The notes under the pieces: generated by a model
Told to the model about the DNA's origin: nothing
Seen by the model: only the letters and a program-made list of their open reading frames with translations
Database searches by the model: none
Part shown: positions 1-11,845 of the stretch, in pieces
Position numbering within the stretch: the first letter of the stretch is position 1
How the letters are laid out: every line of letters starts with the position of its first letter
Origin: a virus
Taxonomy: Duplodnaviria; Heunggongvirae; Uroviricota; Caudoviricetes
IMG/VR virus record: IMGVR_UViG_2541047885_000017
Span: 1 to 11,845 of that record
Strand: one strand, 5' to 3'
Length of the DNA: 11,845 nt
Made by a program: the position numbers and the translations under genes

Positions 1-162
1 AGTTTGCTCCTGCCATAACGTGAAGAAGCAATGACCTGGTGGTCCGTGACTTCCCTACGCTGGCATTATCCAGATCAGGTGATACGGGTATTTCTTACTA
101 ATTTTTGTTATCAGTTGATAATTAATAAGTTTTTCAGCATACAAGAATTAAAAACCTCAAAA

Positions 163-187
163 CTGACCACACAACTGACCACACATT
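163..187. repeat. Tandem direct repeat, two copies of a 12-13 bp unit (AACTGACCACACA)
   Basis: Read directly: aactgaccacaca at 163-175 is followed immediately by actgaccacaca at 176-187. Function unknown; it lies in the non-coding end beyond the large terminase gene. Confidence 0.5.
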
Positions 188-451
188 TTGTTGAAGCTCT
201 ACGAACAACGACGAACAATAACAAACAAAAGGGAAATTTGCTGGCAGTTTTGCTTAACCGTTATCATTTTTCGGCTATCCGTTATCAAGCTGGTGGATGA
301 TTACGGATAACCCGTTATGGAGATCCCCATATCGGCATCATGCCCACCAGCATGAAGTATTTTTCGCGGGTGTAAAAATTTGACGGGGCGGACAGTTCCA
401 TAAGTAATGGGTTGCAGGAATTTCGATCCCCATCCTGAATGCAATTTTTCG

Positions 452-632
452 TATATATATATATACAAAACAGCGCGGGTTATGCGGGTTAGCGGGTTAT
501 CTTCGCGTGCTAAGCATTTTTTACTCTTTAATATCAATACGTTAAAAAACAACGTATTTAAATATCAGCCAGAGTGTAACCCGCAAGACATTCAAAATAA
601 CCCGCAAACACCCCTCAAAAAACCCGCAAAAA
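452..632. repeat. Structured non-coding array: (TA)7 tract, three tandem GCGGGTTA, AT-rich spacer, three inverted TAACCCGCAA at about 21 bp phasing
   Basis: Read directly: (TA)7 at 452-465; GCGGGTTA at 475-482, 484-491 and 492-499; AT-rich 501-576; the reverse-complement motif TAACCCGCAA at 577-586 and 598-607, and AACCCGCAA at 621-629. The two triplets face each other across the AT-rich centre. Role (integrase arm sites, terminase binding or origin) is inferred only. Confidence 0.55.
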
Positions 633-708
633 CATCCCTGAAAGTGGGTGCCGGTAATACTGAAAATTTATTCCATTAAATGAGCATTGTCCTCTCTCAT
701 CCATTCCG

Positions 709-2370
709 TTACACACCATCAAACGCCGCAAGCCGCTCTTTGTGGCTGTCGCTCATATCAAATGCAAATTCCTCATGCTCTGCCTGGAATGTGCCAAACG
801 CCATCAGCGCCGCAACGCTCGGGTCTATCTTGTTGGATGATTTTTTCTTGTTCGGCTTGATATTGGCGTTCGCGTCACTCTGCATCACAACATTACTCAT
901 TGACCAGGCCAGCACCGGATCACCACGATGCACAATCACCTTCCGGTTAACAAAAACTTCGAACGATTTCGCCGCCGGACTGAAACGAAGGTATGTTTGC
1001 GGGAACGGCTCCACCTCAAATCCTGCCCCCTGTAGCTGCGTCCTCAGGTGCGTGGCGTTCCATGTATCGAAGCCCACCAGCCTGATATTGAAATTCTCTG
1101 CATCCGCCATGATGTCATCACGGATACGGTCATAATCAATGCAGTCACCCGGTGTTGTGCGTATCCAGCCCGCCTTTACCCACTGGCGATAGATGGCGCG
1201 GTTTTTATTGGCGGGGTTCTGTAGCTGAAATTCCGGCAGATAGTGACGGGAAACCAGCATAATCTTTTTACCGACCGGAAAGGCATAGCACACGCTGGAA
1301 ATATCGCTGGTTGATGATAAGTCCAGCCCCGCGTAGCACTCCTGCCCGTATAAATCCGCCTCCGCGAACGTTCCGGCGCACTCCGCCCATGCACCGTTAC
1401 CCATCCACGGCGTAGCCCCCTGACACCAGATATTGAATCGCTTGGTGAGCATTTCCACCCACTGCGACGGAATACCCCGCGCTTTCTGGATGGTTGAGGC
1501 CAGTTTTTCACGATCGACGGAAACATCGATATTTGGATTCGCCTTTATCCACATCGCCGGATCGTCAACCTCGCTTTCATCATCCAGCTCGTAAATCAGA
1601 ACGAACATGGATTCGTTCATCTCTTCACCATCCAGTATCTGACAGCAATAGTCATAGTGTTGTTTACAGGCTGAAACAACGTTGCTCCCCGATGTGGTGA
1701 TGGCAAATAACAGCCCCTCCGGACGCGCCCCCATCCCCATATCAAGTGCGGAATAAACCCCGTTGTCTGGGTGCAGGTGATATTCATCCACAATGGCAAG
1801 ACTCGGGTTTGTCCCCTCAATGGTTGCCGCTTTTGCTGCCAGTGGCTTTAACAGGCTGTTGGTTTTCGGGTGTATCACCTTATGCGCCTGAATATTCACC
1901 CGCCTGCGTAACGGTCGGGATAAAAGGCACATCTGACGCGCATCATCAAAGACGATCCGCGCCTGGTCACGGCTCACCGCTGCGGTGTAGATATCCTGCT
2001 GACCGTTCTCCATAATCAAAAACCAGTTAGCCAGAATCGCGGCGGTCGTGGATTTCGCATTTTTGCGCGGCACTTCGATAAAGGCGCTCGTGTATTTGCG
2101 CCGTCCGGTGGCCTTAACCTTAAAGCCGAGGATGCACGCAAAGGCGAACTGCTGCCACGGCTCCAGCTCAATGGGTCTGCCACGCATCGGCCCTTTTACG
2201 TGCGGGCACACCCTGGAAAAGGCAATAAACCGCTCCACAACCTCACGATCGAACGTGTAAAGGGGGCTTTCAAGGTCCGAAAAGTACCGTTTAACGGCCT
2301 GTTTCAGCCGTTTACAGGCCGGAATTTTGCCCGTTTTTACGTCTTCTGCGTACTTATTCCAGGCGGTCAA
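709..2370 (-). CDS. terL: Phage terminase large subunit (ATPase/nuclease)
   Basis: 553-aa ORF. N-terminus MTAWNKYAEDVKTGKIPACKRLKQAVKRYF is typical of large terminases; P-loop-like PRKNAKSTTAAILANW; length and position after the small terminase fit. Starts at a TTG codon preceded by AAGAGGA with a 5-nt spacer, and overlaps the small terminase 3' end by 17 nt. Confidence 0.9.
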   Translation of the reverse strand: MTAWNKYAEDVKTGKIPACKRLKQAVKRYFSDLESPLYTFDREVVERFIAFSRVCPHVKGPMRGRPIELEPWQQFAFACILGFKVKATGRRKYTSAFIEVPRKNAKSTTAAILANWFLIMENGQQDIYTAAVSRDQARIVFDDARQMCLLSRPLRRRVNIQAHKVIHPKTNSLLKPLAAKAATIEGTNPSLAIVDEYHLHPDNGVYSALDMGMGARPEGLLFAITTSGSNVVSACKQHYDYCCQILDGEEMNESMFVLIYELDDESEVDDPAMWIKANPNIDVSVDREKLASTIQKARGIPSQWVEMLTKRFNIWCQGATPWMGNGAWAECAGTFAEADLYGQECYAGLDLSSTSDISSVCYAFPVGKKIMLVSRHYLPEFQLQNPANKNRAIYRQWVKAGWIRTTPGDCIDYDRIRDDIMADAENFNIRLVGFDTWNATHLRTQLQGAGFEVEPFPQTYLRFSPAAKSFEVFVNRKVIVHRGDPVLAWSMSNVVMQSDANANIKPNKKKSSNKIDPSVAALMAFGTFQAEHEEFAFDMSDSHKERLAAFDGV

Positions 2371-2710
2371 GCTCGTCCTCTTCTTCTGTTTCCGGTGGAT
2401 TTTTACGGCGGCTTATCGGGTCAAAACCGAGCAAGGAGGCCATTTTTATCATCACTCTTTCAGCGTCGGATTTTGCGCTTAATGCGGGGTTTCTGCTCTC
2501 GCCGCCCTGACTGTTAACAATGCTGAACCCGCGCGCCGCAAGGTCTGCGACGGCTTTCCGGTAAATGGAGTAGTTGACACAATACAGTTCCAGATTGCTC
2601 CAGTCGGCGGGGGTCAGGTCTCCCCGTTCCGCAAGCTGCCGCGATTTTTCCCGCCACTGCTTCACGGCGATATCATCCAGGTAGGCGGGGGCTTTCGGTG
2701 GTCTTGCCAT
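2354..2710 (-). CDS. terS: Phage terminase small subunit, P27 family
   Basis: 118-aa ORF MARPPKAPAYLDD...LELYCVNYSIYRKAVADLAARG...MASLLGFDPISRRK with acidic C-terminus, matching the P27-type small terminase pattern; sits immediately upstream of terL. The sequence just upstream of the ATG is a weak Shine-Dalgarno. Confidence 0.85.
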   Translation of the reverse strand: MARPPKAPAYLDDIAVKQWREKSRQLAERGDLTPADWSNLELYCVNYSIYRKAVADLAARGFSIVNSQGGESRNPALSAKSDAERVMIKMASLLGFDPISRRKNPPETEEEDELDRLE

Positions 2711-2998
2711 GCTTATTTTTCGTCAGATTATTTTTCAAAAAATTCCCGTGCATAAAAATTTGAGGAGGTGGTCGGTGTCCGGCAGGGACGGTTTCGTCCT
2801 GAAAACCTCCCCCACCCCCTCTGACGACTTCACCAGCGATTGCGAAAACATTCCATGACCTCGCGGTCACGGTCGGTTAATCGCTTCGCTGTGGTGCGTT
2901 CTATGCGTCCTGTCCTGTTGGCTTTGTGCCCTGTCTCCTGTGTCTTCCATAAGTCACGCTGCCTTATCAGTCCACGTATCAGCCTGTTTTGCTCCTGT
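2711..2998. other. Non-coding gap between HNH and terS; candidate cos/packaging-initiation region
   Basis: 288 bp without a convincing gene in an otherwise overlapping operon. Contains an imperfect hairpin cagggacggtttcgtcctg (2783-2801), a C-rich tract cctcccccaccccctc (2807-2822) and GAGGAGG (2763-2769). Position matches where HK97-like phages carry cos (between HNH and terS in the circular map). Assignment is by analogy only. Confidence 0.3.
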
Positions 2999-3439
2999 TC
3001 AGTCATCATCGCCATACATCCAGTCGTTACGATGTGCCGCCCGTTCTTCCTGCTCGCGATACATGCCCGCCTTACGGTTCGCTTTCGTGGCTGGATCTTC
3101 CCGTGTCGTCTTACGGTTGTGGCACGTCTGGCACAATGCCTGATGGTTCCACTCAGGCCAGAAGAGAACATCACCACCGCCATTGATGGGGATAATGTGA
3201 TCCACCACAAAGGCTGGCGTATAAATACCCTCAGCCAGACAACGCACACATAACGGATTTTTTTTCAGGTACAGGGCGCGATATTTGTCCCACTGTCGGG
3301 AATACCCGCGCGCGCGGCGGTGTCCTCGTCTGGCATCCTCTGCACGCCATGCCGCCCGCCTGTGCTCCTCACACTTGCCGGACTTCACGCGCCTGTTACA
3401 GCCTGGTTCTGTGCATCGTCTTAATGGTTGCCACGGCAT
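2999..3439 (-). CDS. HNH endonuclease (terminase-associated)
   Basis: 146-aa ORF with N-terminal Cys-rich MPWQPLRRCTEPGCNRRVKSGKCEEHRR and an HNH core LCVRCLAEG...VVDHIIPINGGGDVLFWPEWNHQALCQTCHNRKT. Start overlaps the stop of the upstream connector gene by 1 nt (TGATG). Confidence 0.85.
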   Translation of the reverse strand: MPWQPLRRCTEPGCNRRVKSGKCEEHRRAAWRAEDARRGHRRARGYSRQWDKYRALYLKKNPLCVRCLAEGIYTPAFVVDHIIPINGGGDVLFWPEWNHQALCQTCHNRKTTREDPATKANRKAGMYREQEERAAHRNDWMYGDDD

Positions 3440-3735
3440 CAGTACACCCCCACATCACGATAAACCGACCAGAGCGCGGAAATCGTCAGGGGAATTTCTT
3501 TTGTATCTGTATCGCCAAGCGTTGTCCGGTACTCGTACAGTTGCGAGATGTACATCAGGCAGCCAATTTTTATTGCAGGGGTAAATTCCAGGCCATCATC
3601 AAAACGCCTACCAATATGTTTCTGACATACCTCCAGCGCCGCGCTTATGTATGCCTGAATCAGTGTGTCTTCTGTGTTACCGTCTATGCGGCAGTGAAGT
3701 TTGGCTTCTTCCAGGGTTATTTTTTCTGCTGTCAT
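3439..3735 (-). CDS. Head-tail connector protein (gp6-like, DNA-packaging/head completion)
   Basis: 98-aa ORF MTAEKITLEEAKLHCRIDGNTEDTLIQAYISAALEVCQKHIGRRF, the characteristic N-terminal pattern of gp6-like head-tail connectors. 4-nt ATGA-type overlap with the upstream gene. Confidence 0.7.
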   Translation of the reverse strand: MTAEKITLEEAKLHCRIDGNTEDTLIQAYISAALEVCQKHIGRRFDDGLEFTPAIKIGCLMYISQLYEYRTTLGDTDTKEIPLTISALWSVYRDVGVY

Positions 3736-4070
3736 TTTTCTGTACCCACCTTTGCCAGAATTTCCAGCCGGGTTCTTTTCGCATCAGGTAAGGGGATCCC
3801 GATGATATTAAGCATGCTCCCGGCAAAAGCACCGGTAAGCACTTTCAGTCGACTGGCGGCGGATATGTCGCCACGATAGCGAACCCATACCCGAATCGTT
3901 GCAGGTGCGGTTTCTGCGCCTGCGGTCAGTAATTCCCGTCCGCTGATCCCCTTGACCTCTGCCCAGATGGTTTCCCCTTCCGTCCATATCTGCCGGATCG
4001 CTCCTGACGGCAGGCGCTGCGTGATAAATGTCATAATCGTCACCCGGTCCCGCATATTTCCGGCTATCAT
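3732..4070 (-). CDS. Head-tail adaptor / head closure protein
   Basis: 112-aa ORF in the position and size range of phage head-tail joining proteins, directly after the portal. Start ATG overlaps the portal stop (ATGA). Assigned by size, context and general resemblance, not a diagnostic motif. Confidence 0.6.
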   Translation of the reverse strand: MIAGNMRDRVTIMTFITQRLPSGAIRQIWTEGETIWAEVKGISGRELLTAGAETAPATIRVWVRYRGDISAASRLKVLTGAFAGSMLNIIGIPLPDAKRTRLEILAKVGTEK

Positions 4071-5290
4071 TCGTCACCGCCCTGACTGTTCTTGCTGATT
4101 GTCACTTCCTGCTTCCATGCCTGGCTGAACTCGTCGCCACCTTCACGCGGCGGCATTCCCTCACGCTCACGGGCTTCGTTCGGATTCATGATCCCGTTCT
4201 TAATCCCTTTCTCATACGTGGCGTAACGTTCGGTAGGGGTGGCGCGTAATAAATCAGCTGAATCAAACTCAACCAAATAACGGGTACCGGGTACGGGAGA
4301 AGCCACCAGCAAAGCGGCCTTGATTTGCTGTTCGAAGTTCGCCAGCCACGGGCGCATTGTCATGGTCAGAAACGCGCGGCTTGCCTCGCTGAAATTGCTG
4401 TAGGTGCTGTTGCTGTATTCCTGCAGAAAAATAGGCGATACGTTGAACATCCGGGCGATGTCTTCAATGGAGAAGCGACGGGAGGCCAGCCATTCCGCAT
4501 CCTGGTTACTCATTCCCAGTTGCTTGTAATCCATGCCCCCTTCAAGGATTGGCGTTTTTCCGGCATTTTTCGCCCCCTTGTAGCGTTCCAGAGCATCCAA
4601 TGCCTGTTTACCTTTCACGCCGTCCAGCCATTCGCCTGACGTGATAATCCCTGCCGCCATCATGCCATCTTTCATAATGCTGGCTCCGTGGCGCTGTTGA
4701 GCAAGGCCAAGCCCAAGTGCCTCACGGCAAATCGTGACAGGGGAGCGCCCCAGAAAGCCATCATCCGAGGCATAGCGGAGATGCAGAACTTCTTCCTGTA
4801 AATACGTGCGCACCGTTCCTGTATAGGGTTCGGTGATGGTATAGCGGTATTTGTGTGCGCCTGTGCGTTCCGGTACAACACAACCCGGTGCATAAGGATG
4901 AAGTGATTTTGGCTGACCGTCCCGCCCCCACTCAATAACCGCATAGGCGTTACCGTTCAGCAGGCAGTGACGCATCATTGTGCGTTTAAACTGGTAAGGT
5001 GTCTGGCACGAATTAGGCTGCTCATTCAGCAGAATATCTACCGGATGACTGTCCAGCCATTCCCGCGCCTCCCTGCCCTTGTCATTACGTACCAGATACA
5101 GATAACAAGGCATCGTGGCCACCGCCTCAGCGATGACAGAAACCGCGTTCATCACTGCAGGCAATGATTCAGCCGTCCCGGCAGAAACATATTCTCCGGA
5201 TCCGGTATTCGGTACGCCGGCCAGCGCCAGAAAATCATCAATGGACAGGTTACGTTGCTCACTTTTTTTACGACTAAAAGGCCACCACAT
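4067..5290 (-). CDS. Phage portal protein, HK97 family
   Basis: The track ORF (4067-5380) carries a Cys-rich 30-aa N-terminal extension that overlaps the protease gene. The Met at 5290 (MWWPFSRKKSEQ...) lies 1 nt after the protease stop and gives about 407 aa, typical portal length. The assignment rests on that length and on the conserved position between prohead protease and head-tail connector genes; no diagnostic motif was identified. Confidence 0.85.
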   Translation of the reverse strand: MWWPFSRKKSEQRNLSIDDFLALAGVPNTGSGEYVSAGTAESLPAVMNAVSVIAEAVATMPCYLYLVRNDKGREAREWLDSHPVDILLNEQPNSCQTPYQFKRTMMRHCLLNGNAYAVIEWGRDGQPKSLHPYAPGCVVPERTGAHKYRYTITEPYTGTVRTYLQEEVLHLRYASDDGFLGRSPVTICREALGLGLAQQRHGASIMKDGMMAAGIITSGEWLDGVKGKQALDALERYKGAKNAGKTPILEGGMDYKQLGMSNQDAEWLASRRFSIEDIARMFNVSPIFLQEYSNSTYSNFSEASRAFLTMTMRPWLANFEQQIKAALLVASPVPGTRYLVEFDSADLLRATPTERYATYEKGIKNGIMNPNEAREREGMPPREGGDEFSQAWKQEVTISKNSQGGDE

Positions 5291-5291
5291 A

Positions 5292-5852
5292 TCACAACCC
5301 CGCCAGCTCTGCCCAGCGATGACGATTATTTCCTGCCGGGCGTAATTCAGGGTGCAGTGCAAACAACGAACGGTGGGCAATCTCCACGCCAGATTCTGGA
5401 TAAGCAGGCATCGACGTTATCGTGATTTCACGGAGTTCTGCGGCGGTAACAGTGCGCAGATACGGTTTTTGCGCGATATTCCACTCCTCGCATAATGCGC
5501 GAAAGCCAAAGCTCATTCCTGTAATGTCGCCCCGCTCCACCAGCGTAAGCACATCTTTCCCAAGCTGGGTATCCGGCGGTGTCAGTTCAAAACGTAACCC
5601 GGTGTTATCCTCAGTCAGTACCAGAGTGCCGGATTTGGTACGCCCCAGCAGTCGGGTACAGTCATGCTCATACAGGCAGCGCACATCATTACCCGCAGCC
5701 AGATAGTCAGCAAAAGCCCCCGGCGTGAACTGTTCGCGGAACTCATCCCAGATAATTTCTGAAAGGCTGTTCCAGCGAACGGCATACCCCACCAGCTTTT
5801 TATTGCTGGCGGTCAGTTCAGATGTGCGGATTTCAAAATCGGTGTTTTTCAT
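5292..5852 (-). CDS. Prohead maturation protease, HK97 family (S78-like)
   Basis: 186-aa ORF MKNTDFEIRTSELTASNKKLVGYAVRWNS...CLYEHD...GDITGMSFGF: typical length, His-containing and GxSxG-like serine motifs, and position between capsid and portal. Confidence 0.9.
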   Translation of the reverse strand: MKNTDFEIRTSELTASNKKLVGYAVRWNSLSEIIWDEFREQFTPGAFADYLAAGNDVRCLYEHDCTRLLGRTKSGTLVLTEDNTGLRFELTPPDTQLGKDVLTLVERGDITGMSFGFRALCEEWNIAQKPYLRTVTAAELREITITSMPAYPESGVEIAHRSLFALHPELRPAGNNRHRWAELAGL

Positions 5853-5906
5853 CGGTGTACTCCATAAAGCTGAAAAAGGAGGCCGCAGCCTCCTCCTTAC
5901 TCATGA

Positions 5907-7076
5907 CTAGCCAGCTTTCATTTCCAGAATTTTGATGGCGTTTGAATCCACCACACCACCGCCCAGATATTTATCCGTGTGGACCTTGTAGAATCCGGGT
6001 TCAGTAATGTTGTCCGGTCGGGTGCGAATACCCGTTACATGATCAACGATGAAATAACCACGACTGAAATCACCAACCGCGAGCGGTGCTTTTCCTGCGC
6101 CGATGTCCGGCATGGACTCCAGGCAGTAAACAGGACGACCAAGCAACATATCCGGCGCACCTTCTTTAAGGCTGTCGCGCCAGATATAATCTCCATTCTC
6201 ATTTTTCAGCTTCTGTAGTGTCCCTGCCGTGCCCGAGTTCATCACCCAGACGGCATTTTTGCGGTATTTCGCTTTCAGCTTGTAGAGAATGTCGATCAGT
6301 TCGTCCGCTGTAATGGAGGTTCCACTTGCCGCTACCATTTTTTCAATGGTGCCAAAAGCGCGGGTTTTGTCACTGGTCGCTGCACGGGTGTAAGCCATGA
6401 AGCCTTTCGGCTTGCCGTTACCGTCGCCATTAACAAAATCATCCTCTTCGGTGCTGGCGAACGTGTCGGCAATTTCGGAGGATAACCAGCCCAGAATATC
6501 CACCTCTGAAAAATCCAGGATTTCCTGCGTGGTTTTCGGGTAGGCGTAGATCGGATTCAGCTTGATGGTTACGCGTTCAATTTTCGGGGTGTTGGTTTCG
6601 CTGCGCGCGCTGCCTTCTGTGCCTCGTCCTACAGTTGCGCCGCCAGTGGAAACCAGTTTCTGAAACTCATTTGATTTTGCGGTCTTCACGGTCGCGATCA
6701 CGCGCATAACACTGTCATCCTGTAGCTGGCGCATGACTTCGCGATCAAGCTCAGGAATTACGGTATATCCGCCATCCCTGCCGCTGTCAGTGCTGGTGGA
6801 CAGTGATCGCACATCTCCGGTTACGATGTAGTTACGCAATTCATCAGATGATAATTTCTGGATGCCCGTTCCTGGCTTGCTGCGTTCTTCATCAGCCACA
6901 GACTCGAGGCGGGAAATTTCTGTGTCGAGGGAATCGGCTTTTGCACGCAGTTCATCAAACTGTTTGCCCTCGTCATCGTTCAGGCTGCGGTTTTCACTGT
7001 CGGCTTTTTCCAGCAGGGATCGCATCTGGTTTTTCAGGGCGGTTTTTTGCTGGCGGAGTTCGATTAATTTCTTCAT
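5907..7076 (-). CDS. Major capsid protein, HK97 fold, with N-terminal delta/scaffold domain
   Basis: 389-aa ORF. The first 100 or so residues are a coiled-coil-like charged region (MKKLIELRQQKTALKNQMRSLLEKADSENRSL...), as in HK97-type capsid delta domains, followed by a capsid-sized body; adjacent to the prohead protease. Confidence 0.9.
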   Translation of the reverse strand: MKKLIELRQQKTALKNQMRSLLEKADSENRSLNDDEGKQFDELRAKADSLDTEISRLESVADEERSKPGTGIQKLSSDELRNYIVTGDVRSLSTSTDSGRDGGYTVIPELDREVMRQLQDDSVMRVIATVKTAKSNEFQKLVSTGGATVGRGTEGSARSETNTPKIERVTIKLNPIYAYPKTTQEILDFSEVDILGWLSSEIADTFASTEEDDFVNGDGNGKPKGFMAYTRAATSDKTRAFGTIEKMVAASGTSITADELIDILYKLKAKYRKNAVWVMNSGTAGTLQKLKNENGDYIWRDSLKEGAPDMLLGRPVYCLESMPDIGAGKAPLAVGDFSRGYFIVDHVTGIRTRPDNITEPGFYKVHTDKYLGGGVVDSNAIKILEMKAG

Positions 7077-7270
7077 GAAGGTTTTCTCGTATTGGTTAAG
7101 ATTCAGGACGTGAAACCAACACGGAGGGAGCGCCGCCCGACACTCTCAGCATCTCGCAGATCAACCCGGCATCGCGCAGGGGGTCAGGCGGCATTGTGGC
7201 GGCTCACGTCTGAGTGCCACACGCCAACATATACATAAAAATCAGTATGTAAACATCAGCCAGAATCACC

Positions 7271-7296
7271 GAACAATCTGGAACAACCGCGAACAA
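7271..7296. promoter_or_regulatory. Three GAACAA direct repeats at exactly 10-bp phasing upstream of the capsid operon
   Basis: Read directly: GAACAA at 7271-7276, 7281-7286 and 7291-7296 (TTGTTC on the coding minus strand). They lie between the terminator and the capsid start in a 273-bp non-coding leader. A regulatory role is inferred. Confidence 0.3.
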
Positions 7297-7313
7297 ATAA
7301 TTTACAAAACCTG

Positions 7314-7340
7314 AAAAAAGACCCGGGAAAAATCCGGGCC
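7314..7340 (-). terminator. Rho-independent terminator
   Basis: Minus-strand RNA reads GGCCCGG-AUUUUUC-CCGGGUC followed by UUUUUU: a GC-rich stem of 5-7 bp, 7-nt loop and T-tract. It starts 10 nt after the stop of the 82-aa ORF and is followed by a long leader before the capsid gene. Confidence 0.6.
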
Positions 7341-7349
7341 TTTATCGCT

Positions 7350-7598
7350 TTACTGTTTCACGGGATCGCGCATTCTGCGCCTTATTTTCCACAAATATTC
7401 GATCATCGCTTCCACCTGCTCACGGTTGGTTGCGAAAATTTCCCCGGTCAGTGAGCTGCGCAGAAAATCATGATGATCCACAACAAACAACGCATCGGAA
7501 GAAAGCAGACGGCGATATTTTTTTGCTGTCGTGGTTTCCAGATCATCAAAACCATGAAACTTTTTATGTTGCTGAACTTCTTCAAATGTCACAGGCAT
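7350..7598 (-). CDS. Hypothetical protein (82 aa)
   Basis: Track ORF 7350-7637; preferred start is the internal Met at 7598 (MPVTFEEVQQHKKF...), preceded by AGGAGGA with a 5-nt spacer. No recognisable motif. Last gene before the terminator. Confidence 0.5.
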   Translation of the reverse strand: MPVTFEEVQQHKKFHGFDDLETTTAKKYRRLLSSDALFVVDHHDFLRSSLTGEIFATNREQVEAMIEYLWKIRRRMRDPVKQ

Positions 7599-7643
7599 GT
7601 TTCCTCCTGCTACCACGATACCAGAAACAGTTAACAACCGTTA

Positions 7644-7925
7644 TCAATTATCCCTTTTTTTCGGGTAGTTCCTGAACATCTCACCGCCAGGTTTCTGTAA
7701 GCCCATCCCGGTATGTGTGCGGTTTATGGCCTCTTTCAGTATTCCGAAATTATCCGGTATGACTGGTTGGCGCGCTGCCTTACGGATACATTCCGCGCGA
7801 CGCTTTGCCACCTGTTCGCGCTCCTTGTCAGTGCTCACCAGCCACATAACATCAGCCCAACGTGCCGCTGCTCTCCGGTACAGCCCTTTAGCCTCCAGTT
7901 CTTCCGCTTTGCTGTCTTTAATCAT
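7644..7925 (-). CDS. Small regulatory protein, possibly PerC-family transcriptional activator-like
   Basis: Preferred start is the ATG at 7925 (MIKDSKAEELEAKGLYRRAAARWADVMWLVSTDKEREQVAKRRAECIRKAARQP), preceded by GAGG with a 6-nt spacer. The KAEELEAKGLYRRAAARW...RR..CI pattern resembles PerC/Pch-type activators as I recall them; this is not verified by search. Confidence 0.45.
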   Translation of the reverse strand: MIKDSKAEELEAKGLYRRAAARWADVMWLVSTDKEREQVAKRRAECIRKAARQPVIPDNFGILKEAINRTHTGMGLQKPGGEMFRNYPKKRDN

Positions 7926-7940
7926 GCTGTACCTCACTGC

Positions 7941-8366
7941 TTAAAACGGTATCCCGTCCCCGTACGGGTCATCGTGCTGGCTTGTCTGTTGTTTTGCCCT
8001 GTTCAGTGCGTCAGTGTCCTGGCCCTGTTGACCTTTTTTGCCGCCCGGTCGCGCCGTTCGCGCACTGATTACGCTGTCTGCAATAACCTGCCAGCCCTGC
8101 CGCGTTTCCCCGTTCTGGCCTGTCCACTGGCTCACCTGCATTGTGCCGGATACGCTGGCAACATCGCCTTTGTGGTGTTTAGCCAGGAAGTCAGCCTGTT
8201 TGCCAAATGCGATGACCGACAACCACAACGTCGCCTGTCCGTCCTGTGCCTGACTGCATGGCAGTGATACCGCCATACGCGCCAGCGTCATCGGTGTGCC
8301 CTTGCTGGTCTGTTTTACCTGCGGGTCGTCCACCAGCCGCCCGTAAGCGGCTATCTGTGCTGTCAT
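7941..8366 (-). CDS. ssb: Single-stranded DNA-binding protein
   Basis: 141-aa ORF. The OB-fold region aligns by eye with E. coli SSB (GRLVDDPQV vs GNLGQDPEV; WLSVIAFGKQADFLAKHHKGDVASVSGTMQVSQWTGQNGE vs [41 protein letters not shown]). Gly/Gln-rich linker and acidic tail ending DGIPF (cf. DDDIPF). Strong RBS GGAGAGG. Confidence 0.85.
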   Translation of the reverse strand: MTAQIAAYGRLVDDPQVKQTSKGTPMTLARMAVSLPCSQAQDGQATLWLSVIAFGKQADFLAKHHKGDVASVSGTMQVSQWTGQNGETRQGWQVIADSVISARTARPGGKKGQQGQDTDALNRAKQQTSQHDDPYGDGIPF

Positions 8367-8620
8367 GATTCCACCTCTCCGGTTTTAACGTTGATGGTTG
8401 TTACCTGTTCTGCTTCTGCGATCTCCCGTTCTGTCAGCGTGGCAAAGTTTGCCGCTGCTGTGGTCATGAATGCGCTTATCAGGTCGGGATGTGCTTTCGC
8501 GTATCCTTCCCCCGTGTTGCGGTCGATGATTTTTATCGCCACTCTCAGCCAGTGCTCTGTAAGGTCAATGGCGCGGTTATGCTGCTTCTTCTGATTATTA
8601 AGTTTTCCTGATGTGCGCAT
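8363..8620 (-). CDS. Hypothetical protein (85 aa)
   Basis: ORF between the iteron block and ssb. Its stop overlaps the ssb start (ATGA). No recognisable motif. Confidence 0.45.
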   Translation of the reverse strand: MRTSGKLNNQKKQHNRAIDLTEHWLRVAIKIIDRNTGEGYAKAHPDLISAFMTTAAANFATLTEREIAEAEQVTTINVKTGEVES

Positions 8621-8663
8621 TTTTATTTTTACCCCCTCGTTTAAAAAGTTTTGAGTTGTGCCT

Positions 8664-8900
8664 CCCCCCCTCTACCCATCTACCCGAATGCTCATCATGT
8701 CAGTAATGGCGCGGCTTTCAGCGGGTAGATAGCTTTTTTGGCTCCTCTACCTGCCGTCTACCCTGCTACCTGAAACTGATAAAATCAGGTAGAAGAGGTA
8801 GAGAGCTTTTATTAGCCTTCTACCTGGCCCTCTACCTACTTATCATGTTGAATAATATGCGTTTATTTCATTCAGGTAGATGGGGTAGAGGGCTTTTACA
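8664..8900. repeat. Iteron array; putative origin of replication
   Basis: Read directly: about 12 copies of the hexamer TCTACC or its complement GGTAGA in about 220 bp, mostly in closely spaced pairs (8671/8679, 8723 rc, 8746/8757/8766, 8788/8797 rc, 8819/8831, 8875/8884 rc), interspersed with AT-rich stretches (8771-8786, 8837-8873). A 28-bp unit CAGGTAGAnGnGGTAGAGnGCTTTTA recurs at 8786 and 8873. Located immediately 3' of the primase-helicase gene. Confidence 0.7.
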
Positions 8901-8905
8901 AAAAA

Positions 8906-10660
8906 TTATAAAAACGCGTCGCAATCGTCTGTTGTAATTGCGTTGGTCTGCGTTACTCCCTTAACTTTTCGCGTAATATATTCATGTCCGTAAACTTTCG
9001 CCGCTGGCTTCATGGCCTTGCTGAACTCAGCCACGTTTAGCGGTTTGCTCCTGCCTGCGTATGCCATAAACGCCAGATAGACGCGGTAAAGGCTGTTTCT
9101 GGTCGTGTACCTGGAAGAGTCACCGCCGCCGCCCATCATCAGGCCGCGTGCTTCTTCCAGAAAGTTAAGGAACTGGCAAAACTCAATAACCGGATCCGTC
9201 TGTTGCTTTATTGCCAGTGCTTCATCACCGTCACGCTGTTCCAGTAGTAAAGCCCGTGCCTTCTCAGGGTCGGTAAAGTTCGCCAGCAATCGGCGGATAA
9301 TGACAGGGATTTCAGCCGCGATCTTTTCCGGTAGCTCCCTGTCTTTTTCGGCCTCACTGACGATATTGTCGAAACGGAAAATCACGCGACGACGTGCCAC
9401 ACCTCCGGCCCGTTCGGTGAATATCATCGGGTTATTATTGGTTGCCAGCACAACCGCCCTGATTACCGCTGTGAAACGCTTTTCATATTTCGGGTTGATT
9501 TCCACGGGGTCGCCGCCCGTGATTTTCTTGATGCCCGTGCCTTCGCCTGTATATTTCGGCTGGTCTGCCAGGACGATAAGACGACTCCCGACAACCTGCG
9601 CACGTCCACCAGCATCATCAAGCGATGTCATTTCAGCGCTTACCGTGTTTTGTTTCCCTGCCAGAAGGCTGGCTATGTGTGTGAATGTACTTTTACCGCT
9701 CCCGCCGTCTCCGGTGGCCTCAATAAACATCTGCCAGTCGTACCGGTTCGCCATAATCATGTACAGCGCGGCACATATACGCATCATCTTGCGCGGGTCT
9801 TTTCCGGCTGCGTGCTCAAGCCATTTATGAAAGTTTGGCGCGTTGTCGCGGATGTTCTCCCCTGGTGCTGCTGGCGTGTACTCAATGCCGTTGTGCGTGG
9901 TGATCCAGTTCTCCGGCGTGTGCGGGGAAAATTCCCCCGTTTTCAGGTCAAGCGCACCATTGGCGAACGGCAGCAAATCGCCGGACGGCTCGCCCATTGG
10001 TTCGGCAATAACTTTTAACGCTTCCACGGCGTTATTGATTACGCGCTTGCTGAAAGTGGCCCTGTGCTCTGAATAGATCGCCACCATTTCGCGGCTAAGT
10101 TCCATTGTGCTGACCGGACACCATACCCCGCCGCGCCATACGTGAACGATTTCACTTTCAGGATGTACGCAAACGCCATCAAAGCGATCGGCAAGCAGCT
10201 GCGCGCGCTCACTGTCCGCCATCTGCGAAAGTTGCGCCTTTTGCTTTACCGGAAGCTCAATAACCAGACCATCAGAAAGATTCTGGCGTTCACGGGCCAG
10301 ATATTCGCGCCAGTTCTGCACCTCCTGGCCGTGCATACCCTCAGGATAAAAATTTGCATCCTGTACGCCTGCCGCCGCCAGCTTCTGACCAATCGCCTTT
10401 ATCATTACAGGCGCAAGATATCCGGCCCTGTATATGCGTGCTGATTTTCGGCCTTCCGGCACAATTTGCAGATTATCCAGTTCGGATAGCTGCTGCTCCC
10501 CAAGCCACACAGGAGGCTCATTATCTCCGGCCATACGCGCATCATGTTCCTGCCATTGTTTCGCGTGTGACCAGGCATCACTACCCGCAAAAATAATGAC
10601 TTCTGTTTCTTTGTGTTTTATGCCGCGTGACTGCTGTTTTACGTTCGGTGCCAGTTTCAT
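8906..10660 (-). CDS. Replication initiator: P4/D5-family DNA primase-helicase (SF3-type P-loop NTPase)
   Basis: 584-aa ORF. Walker A ATGDGGSGKST; hydrophobic strand RLIVLADQ, Walker B-like; D5_N-like segment LPFANGALDLKTGEF. Start has AGGGG with a 5-nt spacer and overlaps the upstream ORF stop (ATGA). Confidence 0.85.
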   Translation of the reverse strand: MKLAPNVKQQSRGIKHKETEVIIFAGSDAWSHAKQWQEHDARMAGDNEPPVWLGEQQLSELDNLQIVPEGRKSARIYRAGYLAPVMIKAIGQKLAAAGVQDANFYPEGMHGQEVQNWREYLARERQNLSDGLVIELPVKQKAQLSQMADSERAQLLADRFDGVCVHPESEIVHVWRGGVWCPVSTMELSREMVAIYSEHRATFSKRVINNAVEALKVIAEPMGEPSGDLLPFANGALDLKTGEFSPHTPENWITTHNGIEYTPAAPGENIRDNAPNFHKWLEHAAGKDPRKMMRICAALYMIMANRYDWQMFIEATGDGGSGKSTFTHIASLLAGKQNTVSAEMTSLDDAGGRAQVVGSRLIVLADQPKYTGEGTGIKKITGGDPVEINPKYEKRFTAVIRAVVLATNNNPMIFTERAGGVARRRVIFRFDNIVSEAEKDRELPEKIAAEIPVIIRRLLANFTDPEKARALLLEQRDGDEALAIKQQTDPVIEFCQFLNFLEEARGLMMGGGGDSSRYTTRNSLYRVYLAFMAYAGRSKPLNVAEFSKAMKPAAKVYGHEYITRKVKGVTQTNAITTDDCDAFL

Positions 10661-10956
10661 TTTTTACCCCTGAATCCGTTAATCATGGTTTTCAGCTTCT
10701 GGATGTTTGCCCGTGCCCTGGCGTTGCTGGTGGGCACGTTATGCGGCGCGGTCTGTACCAGAGAAAAATCACGCCGGAACTGATAAACAGGCATCACGCA
10801 ATCATATTCGTAGCCTTCACGACGGTAGGTTACGCGCCGTTCCTCCACGCCCTTAATCATTACCGTGCCGCCGTACTGGTCGCGGTAAATATCACCGCGC
10901 ATGAATTTAGTGCGAGTTTTGCCACTGGCAGTTAAGCCAGAATATTTAAGTTTCAT
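10657..10956 (-). CDS. Hypothetical protein (99 aa, basic)
   Basis: ORF translationally coupled to the primase-helicase (ATGA overlap). No recognisable motif. Confidence 0.45.
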   Translation of the reverse strand: MKLKYSGLTASGKTRTKFMRGDIYRDQYGGTVMIKGVEERRVTYRREGYEYDCVMPVYQFRRDFSLVQTAPHNVPTSNARARANIQKLKTMINGFRGKK

Positions 10957-10961
10957 TATTT

Positions 10962-11195
10962 TTATTCTCCGGTGTGGGGCGCTTTATACTGGTCGTGTAA
11001 TGTCTCTATTTCCTGCAACTCATTTATTACAGGCTCAAGAAGCGTTATTAATGCCGTGGCAATTCTTGATTTTTGTTTGTCGCGTTCATTGTCGCCAAGT
11101 GTTTCAAGCCATATGCGCAATATTTCCAGCATGTTTTCACTGTGAGAAAGTGCAAGAAATGCGCGGTCTATTGTTTCGTGGTAAATATCACGCAT
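10962..11195 (-). CDS. Hypothetical protein (77 aa)
   Basis: ORF in the same orientation and tight spacing as its neighbours. No recognisable motif. Confidence 0.4.
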   Translation of the reverse strand: MRDIYHETIDRAFLALSHSENMLEILRIWLETLGDNERDKQKSRIATALITLLEPVINELQEIETLHDQYKAPHTGE

Positions 11196-11196
11196 A

Positions 11197-11649
11197 TTAA
11201 TCCCCGTCCGTCGTTTTTCTTAAAATAACCTCTGTCACGAAATCAGCATAATCGGCGGCGATATTCAGTACATCAAGCCCCGTTGATTTATATTCTCTCG
11301 TGGAAAGTAAGAAAAAAGCCGCTCTAATAAGTTCTGGCATTGACGAAAGCGCATCAGCCGCATCATCAGGAACGCCGGGAAATTCCTGTTTCAGGGCATT
11401 AAAACGATCATCACGCATAACCCCCCCATTTTCACAATCAGCAATCAGGATGGCTTTAGCCTCATTCAGTGCCATATCAGCACTAAGTTGCATAACAGCC
11501 AGTGAGTGAGGAACGAAAGCCCCGGCATATTCTGTTTCACTGGTGGCGTGCTTATGCGCCCTGTCCGCGATAACAGAAATATCAATCAGCGCATCAATCA
11601 GTGTTTTGATTGCTTCGGCGGCTGCGTCCGGACGGGTGTTATTGCACAT
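11197..11649 (-). CDS. Hypothetical protein (150 aa, acidic)
   Basis: ORF with a good RBS (AGGGGG, 5-nt spacer). Asp/Glu/Ala-rich. No recognisable motif. Confidence 0.5.
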   Translation of the reverse strand: MCNNTRPDAAAEAIKTLIDALIDISVIADRAHKHATSETEYAGAFVPHSLAVMQLSADMALNEAKAILIADCENGGVMRDDRFNALKQEFPGVPDDAADALSSMPELIRAAFFLLSTREYKSTGLDVLNIAADYADFVTEVILRKTTDGD

Positions 11650-11845
11650 GGCGCACCCCCTGACGAATACGGGCAGTAAATACCATCACGCAGCCAGCCG
11701 GGGATTGCTGGCGTGCTTCCTGTTCGCTGGTGGCCTCAATGTGAATCACGCGCGGTTGTGCGGTGCTCAGGGCAATAAAACGCCAGATGTATTTATTCAG
11801 GTTGTGTGAGTCCCGCCCTTGCGGGTGTGTGGTATGATTTCTCAT
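11639..11845 (-). CDS. Hypothetical protein, possibly truncated by the window edge
   Basis: ORF whose ATG coincides with the last three bases of the window, so the true start may lie outside. Overlaps the downstream ORF by 11 nt. No recognisable motif. Confidence 0.3.
   Translation of the reverse strand: MRNHTTHPQGRDSHNLNKYIWRFIALSTAQPRVIHIEATSEQEARQQSPAGCVMVFTARIRQGVRHVQ

Follow-up and report, generated by a model that had tools for sequence, protein, structure and literature searches.

A probable capsid-forming phage satellite of Escherichia coli with its attachment core inside the thiM riboswitch

Phage-inducible chromosomal islands of the capsid-forming kind (cf-PICIs) are phage satellites that make their own small heads and borrow only tails from a helper phage. 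The family, first described in 2022-23, is common, as a survey that counted 969 cf-PICIs detected them in 13% of the genomes of Enterobacteriaceae (de Sousa et al, 2023), and the SatelliteFinder model of that survey describes a cf-PICI by 11 core components, with tails and holins forbidden. According to the founding paper on cf-PICIs, the prototype EcCIEDL933 (15.4 kb) carries int, alpA, rep, capsid, protease, portal, head-tail connectors, HNH, terS and terL and no tail genes, and proteobacterial cf-PICIs keep the order capsid-protease-portal-connectors, then hnh-terS-terL. The T=4 capsid of EcCIEDL933 is represented by PDB 9GYI. Helper induction, satellite-made small capsids and dependence on tails only for transfer have been demonstrated for EcCIEDL933, EcCIGN02175 and KpCIDSM30104 only; the latter two set free tail-less capsids, for which tails of several species are used. 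Tail compatibility depends on the adaptor and connector, which are variable cassettes, and published swaps show that they decide tail fit. Here, we describe a stretch of 11,845 bp (IMG/VR record IMGVR_UViG_2541047885_000017, positions 1 to 11,845; hereafter, the window), which very probably covers 11.75 kb, at the int-distal side, of a cf-PICI of 14,960 bp that belongs to the EcCIEDL933 lineage and is located in the Escherichia coli chromosome between thiM and rcnR. This high confidence concerns cf-PICI status by genomic criteria.

A cf-PICI is already a known kind of element, and the identification by itself changes little because the family is abundant. The attachment (att) site in a riboswitch and an orphan iteron array are the only aspects for which we found no published description; with the former, the locus documents an att site within a riboswitch that is destroyed on integration.

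Boundaries and gene content of the island

The flanks of the island were obtained by an exact-protein look-up of the primase encoded in the window, which gave five contigs that align over the whole window, four of them (L003, L004, L006 and L007) at 99.4-99.97% identity and one (L008) at 98.4% with the same layout. In all five, yehB-yehA-rcnB-rcnA-rcnR is followed by an integrase gene (406 aa), a 239-aa open reading frame (ORF), AlpA, small ORFs and the window genes down to terL, and then by thiM-thiD. The island extends in these contigs approximately 3.2 kb past the window end, where the integrase/alpA pair that the first-pass annotation had predicted beyond position 11,845 is present: a tyrosine integrase (PF00589 and PF13356) adjoining rcnR, and a 74-aa PF05930 protein that matches excisionase/regulator PHROGs. 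RefSeq relatives in complete E. coli genomes showed the same flanks. Comparison with the empty site of K-12 revealed a perfect 14-bp direct repeat, ATACGGGTATTTCT, at both junctions, which bounds an island of 14,960 bp, in agreement with the att-bounded island of about 10-15 kb that had been expected. This att core occupies 82-95 at the int-distal junction, recurs at the rcnR-side junction in L007 and occurs once in the K-12 empty site. The element was at first taken to start at 709, but its true start is 96, bases 1-95 being chromosomal thiM leader. Because no tRNA genes were found in the window, the att site is not a tRNA.

The genes form an unbroken minus-strand series from 709 to the window end, as had been read from the ORFs at first pass, and their order, with gene identities from Pfam and NCBIfam profiles, is primase-helicase, SSB, PerC, terminator, capsid, protease, portal, adaptor, connector, HNH, terS and terL, which had likewise been proposed. 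The HK97-fold major capsid protein (5907-7076; PF05065, 2.6e-71) aligns full-length with PDB 9GYI at 64% identity (E=3e-155), with the "connector loop" region present. Beyond it lie an S78 prohead serine protease (5292-5852; PF04586, 1.8e-45), a 407-aa portal (4067-5290; PF04860, 6.5e-93), which is a gene call in the contigs, a head-tail adaptor or head completion/closure protein (3732-4070; PF05521, 2.5e-17; TIGR01563; PDB 2kz4) and a gp6-like head-tail connector (3439-3735; PF05135, 8e-12; TIGR01560), so that all five head components were found with strong scores. The island also has its own packaging genes for an HNH endonuclease acting as terminase accessory (2999-3439; PF01844, 2.5e-9), a P27-family small terminase, terS (2354-2710; Terminase_4, 1e-23), and a large terminase, terL (709-2370; TerL_nuclease 1.7e-52, TerL_ATPase 7e-26, phrog_9 2e-179). 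Every gene named at first pass stands in its place; only a conserved small gene between HNH and terS had been missed, which encodes a 61-aa protein of unknown function (2830-3015, minus strand; phrog_3173, 4.9e-29) and is annotated in L001 and L134.

Together with the primase-replicase, these genes bring the core components of the SatelliteFinder cf-PICI model to 11 of 11, nine inside the window and two (int and alpA) just outside, and both forbidden components are absent. No tail, baseplate, holin or endolysin genes were found in the near-identical contigs, and comparison with Pfam and PHROGs assigned no ORF between rcnR and thiM to a tail or lysis family. The contiguous tail, lysis and immunity modules of a complete temperate HK97-like phage were also not found, host genes directly flanking the 15-kb element. 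Both the gene order and the size match the published account, in which a size of 15.4-15.5 kb is given, and the assignment as a cf-PICI is supported; the rearranged order with terL last, to which the first-pass annotation had drawn attention, is that published for proteobacterial cf-PICIs.

For comparison with the prototype, we used the element of Sakai annotated as "prophage Sp7; untypable", the capsid of which is identical to the 9GYI chain over the 380 residues shown in the alignment; on this basis, Sp7 is regarded as the Sakai copy of EcCIEDL933. Protein identities to Sp7 were 100% for TerS, 95% for TerL, 91% for SSB, 84% for HNH, 82% for the portal, 68% for the connector, 64% for the capsid, 61% for the protease, 60% for PerC/PchE and 54% for the adaptor. 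The ratio of nonsynonymous to synonymous substitution rates (dN/dS) was 0.10-0.27 where it was calculable, the adaptor being excluded because dS was saturated. Such values represent purifying selection, indicating that the genes are functional and not decaying remnants. Furthermore, at least 119 IMG/VR contigs, many of them 15-16 kb, contain an exact 21-mer of the hnh-terS spacer, and a 16.5-kb relative, LR881103, was deposited as the "induced prophage" phage genome from an induced lysate.

The element could alternatively be a decayed HK97-like prophage whose tail and lysis modules have been deleted, and thus a remnant instead of a mobile satellite, in line with the ordinary HK97-type families of its head and packaging proteins and with the prophage annotation of the Sakai homologue. 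This is very improbable, considering that the att repeats are perfect with intact host genes on either side, that there are no pseudogenes and no tail or lysis fragments, and that the replication and regulation half is of the PICI type (int, alpA, P4-family pri-rep) and not lambdoid. The purifying selection on the head and packaging genes where dN/dS is calculable, the compact 15-kb layout that many genomes and viral contigs have in common, and the experimentally established satellite nature of the prototype also argue against decay.

A P4-like satellite, which would redirect the helper capsid with Sid/Psu-type factors and use the helper terminase, could account for a primase that passes the "P4 family" NCBIfam model, for the AlpA regulator and for the P4-type arm-binding domain of the integrase. 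Capsid, protease, portal, connectors and terminase, however, are all encoded by the island itself, Pfam and PHROG scans gave no Sid, Psu or Delta match, and P4-like satellites and cf-PICIs are well-separated clusters by marker-gene combinations in a published analysis, which makes this reading extremely improbable. A classical PICI with captured late genes that are dispensable for transfer would be consistent with the int-alpA-pri half, which is common to PICIs and cf-PICIs, and in many Gram-negative PICIs there is a capsid homologue that transfer does not require (PMC10111431). Nevertheless, the late genes here are a complete set that includes portal, adaptor, connector and terL, the SatelliteFinder markers separating cf-PICI from PICI; each of these genes is required for transfer in the prototype, and terS and terL are 100% and 95% identical to those of the prototype. 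We therefore regard the classical PICI as highly improbable.

Some points weigh against the assignment as a cf-PICI. Both int and alpA lie outside the window, and the contigs in which they were observed are not the window itself but 98.4-99.97% identical to it. The identities of the adaptor (54%) and connector (68%) to the prototype mean that tail specificity is not transferable from the prototype, and the candidate cos and replication origin are assigned from position, conservation and repeat structure. Taken together, the features shown here, which are the gene content, its order and boundaries, the lack of genes for tails and lysis, the homology with the prototype and the purifying selection, support the capsid-forming phage satellite first proposed; contiguous tail or lysis genes and the lack of an att-bounded island, which would have spoken against it, were looked for and neither was found.

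The thiM riboswitch at the attachment site

Positions 1-95, outside the island, are the chromosomal thiM leader on the minus strand, comprising the 3' part of the thiamine pyrophosphate (TPP) riboswitch aptamer and the Shine-Dalgarno sequence, and are 100% identical to thousands of E. coli genomes in which a riboswitch is annotated. In the K-12 empty site, the TPP riboswitch family RF00059 scored 71.2 bits (gathering threshold, 54.3) at intergenic positions 35-131, and the att core at 82-95 is located inside the aptamer, overlapping the AGA of the conserved CUGAGA. At the occupied site (window 1-169, minus strand), the score was 36.5 bits, which is under the gathering threshold and was seen only at a relaxed threshold. 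Only the 3' part of the aptamer is left next to thiM, the P1 5' strand, P2 and P3 being replaced by island DNA, and the 5' part is now in front of int, 15 kb from thiM. The aptamer is physically disrupted and is not restored by integration. PGAP annotated no riboswitch at the junction in two related lysogens, and the same junction is found in 76 of the 5,426 complete E. coli genomes.

The thiM promoter, located upstream of the aptamer 5' part, would also have been moved in front of int. At the other end, thiMD is directly downstream of terL and co-oriented with the island. A scan of the minus (thiM-coding) strand between terL and thiM gave no terminator-like sites, and a consensus scan gave no outward sigma-70 promoter on the minus strand in 1-708, where a weak promoter is still possible. 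RNA folding of the thiM leader predicted that the Shine-Dalgarno sequence is similarly accessible in the presence and in the absence of the island (0.44 vs 0.35). It may be, and we suggest this tentatively, that lysogeny rewires a host vitamin pathway, so that thiMD would no longer sense TPP and would rely on transcription from the satellite or on read-through, with a riboswitch serving as an integration target in the manner of tRNA genes. If this is true, satellite carriage may alter the control of thiamine salvage and biosynthesis. Our search of the literature on thiM with PICI or integrase, and on a riboswitch as attB, found nothing relevant.

The same thiM leader is occupied by a different 7.7-kb element, with a 435-aa integrase, HNH and a recombinase, in strain 503440 (L136, NZ_CP025881.1, 12199-20079). 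This element duplicates the riboswitch, two TPP riboswitches being annotated, of which the thiM-proximal one is complete. The two occupied sites suggest that the thiM leader is an integration hotspot with two outcomes, in which the riboswitch is either restored or destroyed. In O157 strains, as seen in AR-0427 (L010, 18135-20404), the region from an intact thiM riboswitch to rcnR holds an unrelated insert of approximately 2 kb with an HTH-like fragment and an outer-membrane protein gene, and this insert explains many of the approximately 700 genomes with a non-contiguous thiM-rcnR spacer.

The end of the island beyond terL is non-coding and repeat-rich, as had been noted at first pass. It begins with an attP arm (96-361), in which the motif AACTGACCACAC is doubled at 161-184 and CCGTTATC-type repeats are present at 248-312. 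A 70-76-bp direct repeat of 155-228, including the doubled AACTGACCACAC, is found in the same orientation across the core next to int, so that doubled motifs stand approximately 84 and 147 bp from the centre of the att core. The arm segment 96-361 is common only to islands at the thiM site, and for copies outside E. coli, one scan of genome contigs with a 25-bp arm motif gave a single unrelated match, in a metagenome-assembled genome of Massilia. At gathering thresholds, Rfam gave no matches in the window; a "drum RNA" match at 253-365, seen at a relaxed threshold (22 bits vs a gathering threshold of 43, E=0.13), falls in the att arm and was taken as chance. Two plus-strand ORFs, 31-300 and 407-679, which some annotations call genes, overlap the riboswitch remnant, the att arm and an iteron element and were taken as spurious; neither had a PADLOC or PHROG match, and 407-679 had no Pfam match.

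Replication module, iteron arrays and candidate cos site

The primase-helicase gene, pri-rep (8906-10660, minus strand; D5_N, DUF5906, Pox_D5; phrog_864), encodes a protein that scored 109.9 bits against TIGR01613, "phage/plasmid primase, P4 family", above the NCBIfam cut-off of 108.7. The neighbouring segment 8621-8905 contains nine GGTAGANG / CNTCTACC iterons in both orientations and is presumed to be the replication origin; the same array adjoins the same primase in L005, a sibling island, and in L007, and PICI origins sit at this position next to the primase (PMC10111431).

A second iteron element, non-coding, is present at 416-650 near the int-distal end. It consists of (TA)n, three copies of GCGGGTTA (475-500), an AT-rich centre that contains the IHF-like TATCAATACGTTA, and three copies of TAACCCGCAA (577-629) spaced 21-22 bp. 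All six iterons are invariant in seven islands with different flanks, and the element is present at 80% coverage or more in 161 complete E. coli genomes; in three other genomes examined for context, it is at the island end, adjoining chromosomal genes. The same terminal element was also found in islands without a visible capsid module in the adjoining 3.5 kb, likewise at their int-distal end. Part of 416-650 shows 80% identity to intergenic DNA of Sp7 immediately downstream of its DUF927-type primase, a region that has at least 11 GCGGGTT iterons and lies at the position of PICI origins. The primase-adjacent iterons of the window island (GGTAGANG, 8621-8905) differ from its distal GCGGGTT array. 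In L134, a sibling at the thiM site with a DUF927 primase, GCGGGTT arrays are present at both the primase and the distal end, and the window island and L005 have the other primase with GGTAGANG iterons beside it and have kept the distal GCGGGTT array. The simplest reading of these arrangements would be that the primase/origin cassette was exchanged and that the distal array is now an orphan, which, being strictly conserved, presumably still has some function. The siblings with a DUF927 primase, in which one iteron recurs at two distant sites, recall P4 with its ori and crr. The orphan array could link the replication of different satellites. As a separate observation, two islands at other sites with this terminal element (L131 and L132, 4415-7232) encode proteins of approximately 918 and 104 aa with no Pfam match, which are possible cargo.

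The 119-bp spacer between the 61-aa gene and terS, in the hnh-terS interval (2711-2829, minus strand), is likely to contain cos. The circularised genomes of HK97-type phages have cos between hnh and terS, and the spacer is assigned on the basis of this shared position, of a conserved 21-mer, GGTGGGGGAGGTTTTCAGGAC (2796-2816), and of the end of a linear relative. The 21-mer, which is the one shared exactly with the IMG/VR contigs mentioned above, is also exact in most related loci, and the linear record LR881103 terminates exactly at it. When the spacers were compared by eye, the inverted repeat flanking the 21-mer was found to co-vary in both arms, from GAGGT...ACCTC here to GGCGT...ACGCC in Sp7. 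The element at 416-650 was also considered as cos and is less likely, as approximately 2 kb separate it from terS, the origin position of Sp7 holds a homologous array and the linear relative ends in the hnh-terS spacer. A sequence at 7138-7127, GGGCGGCGCTCC, is lambda-cosN-like.

Between the regulator and the capsid gene, the late-operon control region (7077-7349, minus strand) holds the terminator that had been predicted at this place, a G+C-rich hairpin, GGCCCGG-AUUUUUC-CCGGGUC, followed by U6 (approximately 7343-7311). Downstream of it are a promoter-like site, TTTACA-16-TATGTT (7253-7226), and then a structured 150-nt leader (z = -3.4); 49 bp of this region (7271-7319) are common to Sp7. 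The remaining genes, all on the minus strand, had been characterized as unannotated small proteins, which holds in part. Recognizable among them are a PerC-family regulator homologous to PchE of Sp7 (7644-7937; PF06069, 3e-35; pchE in the Sakai annotation), SSB (7941-8366; PF00436, TIGR00621), a DUF4222 protein (10657-10956; PF13973, 2.5e-24) and, at the window end, a 68-aa protein of a PHROG annotated as transcriptional repressor (11639-11845; phrog_6196, 5e-45). The rest belong to conserved PHROG families of unknown function, five small ORFs being counted besides the 61-aa gene, among them those for proteins of 82 aa (7350-7598; phrog_1957, 1.6e-36), 85 aa (8363-8620; phrog_1231, 2.5e-48), 77 aa (10962-11195; phrog_2196) and 150 aa (11197-11649; phrog_2512). 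PADLOC, run on all small proteins, detected no defence systems. PerC/Pch proteins regulate the LEE virulence island, and some cf-PICIs may therefore influence host virulence regulation through the PerC/PchE homologue.

A life cycle can be proposed, in which induction, small capsids, tail dependence and the use of the cos and origin positions are inferred for this island from experimentally studied relatives. A helper phage would trigger alpA, after which Int and AlpA would excise the island at the 14-bp core, and the P4-family primase-helicase, with the SSB of the island, would replicate it from the adjacent iteron origin at 8621-8905. The late operon, from 7226 down to 709, would then provide the capsid, protease, portal, adaptor and connector for building small heads (T=4 in EcCIEDL933), and HNH, TerS and TerL would cut unit-length island DNA at cos in the hnh-terS spacer and package it. 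The filled tail-less heads would be infective only after joining tails made by the helper, with the adaptor and connector setting tail compatibility.

Comparison with known systems

The int-alpA-pri-ori left half of the island resembles that of classical Gram-negative PICIs of the EcCICFT073 type, which, unlike this island, are without portal, connectors and terL and redirect helper packaging. With P4, the island shares the P4-family C-terminal domain of the primase, an AlpA-type regulator and a P4-type integrase; P4 itself has neither capsid nor terminase genes. The HK97-fold capsid, the S78 protease, the portal and the HNH-dependent terminase are similar to those of HK97, the circular form of which has the arrangement hnh-cos-terS-terL, as the window island probably does too. 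Unlike HK97, the island lacks tail, lysis and lysogeny-control modules, its head genes precede hnh-terS-terL, and the capsid of the prototype EcCIEDL933 is T=4, compared with T=7 in HK97.

A further likeness is to the helper-embedded PICIs (HE-PICIs), for which Tommasini, Mageeney and Williams (2023) reported a doubled motif at distances of 81 and 132 bp, comparable with the two co-oriented doubled 12-bp motifs that flank the att core here at approximately 84 and 147 bp. The motif itself differs, being AACTGACCACAC here and TGTATTGC in HE-PICIs, and the site is a chromosomal riboswitch and not a prophage late gene. L005 (GCA_965180965.1, 4177-21330), a sibling cf-PICI that shares its primase and origin with the window island, is located inside the terL of an HK97-type prophage (PF03354-type), in the arrangement TerL 397 aa, int through terL of the island, TerL_nuclease 241 aa and then portal, and is thus helper-embedded like HE-PICIs.

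Within the family, the island is likened, by published description, to EcCIGN02175 and KpCIDSM30104, for which the same mechanism is proposed. The 16.5-kb relative LR881103.1 (L009), deposited as the "phage" vB_KppS-Ant, has a cf-PICI layout of int, regulator, primase, capsid and further genes to HNH, terS and terL. Its terL is directly followed by a gene for 765 aa with the annotation "tail length tape measure protein" (2036-4333), in an accessory slot that is empty in the window island.

The closest comparison is with EcCIEDL933/Sp7, which has the same order from int to terL in 15.4-15.5 kb, against 14.96 kb here, with PerC/PchE at the same position and a similar hnh-terS spacer. The two differ in the att site, which is phoQ/roxA in Sakai and the thiM riboswitch here, in the primase and its iterons, which are of the DUF927 type with GCGGGTT in Sp7 and of the D5_N/P4-family type with GGTAGANG here, and in the lack of a gene after terL in the window island. 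The pattern is one of satellite mosaicism, in which a terminase nearly identical to that of the prototype is combined with a diverged capsid, adaptor and connector and with an exchanged primase/origin cassette, and it bears on which tails and replication partners a satellite can use. The divergence of the capsid and protease, together with that of the connector and adaptor, suggests a tail partner different from that of Sp7, and the identities of the adaptor and connector in particular make it probable that the tails used by this island are not those of EcCIEDL933.

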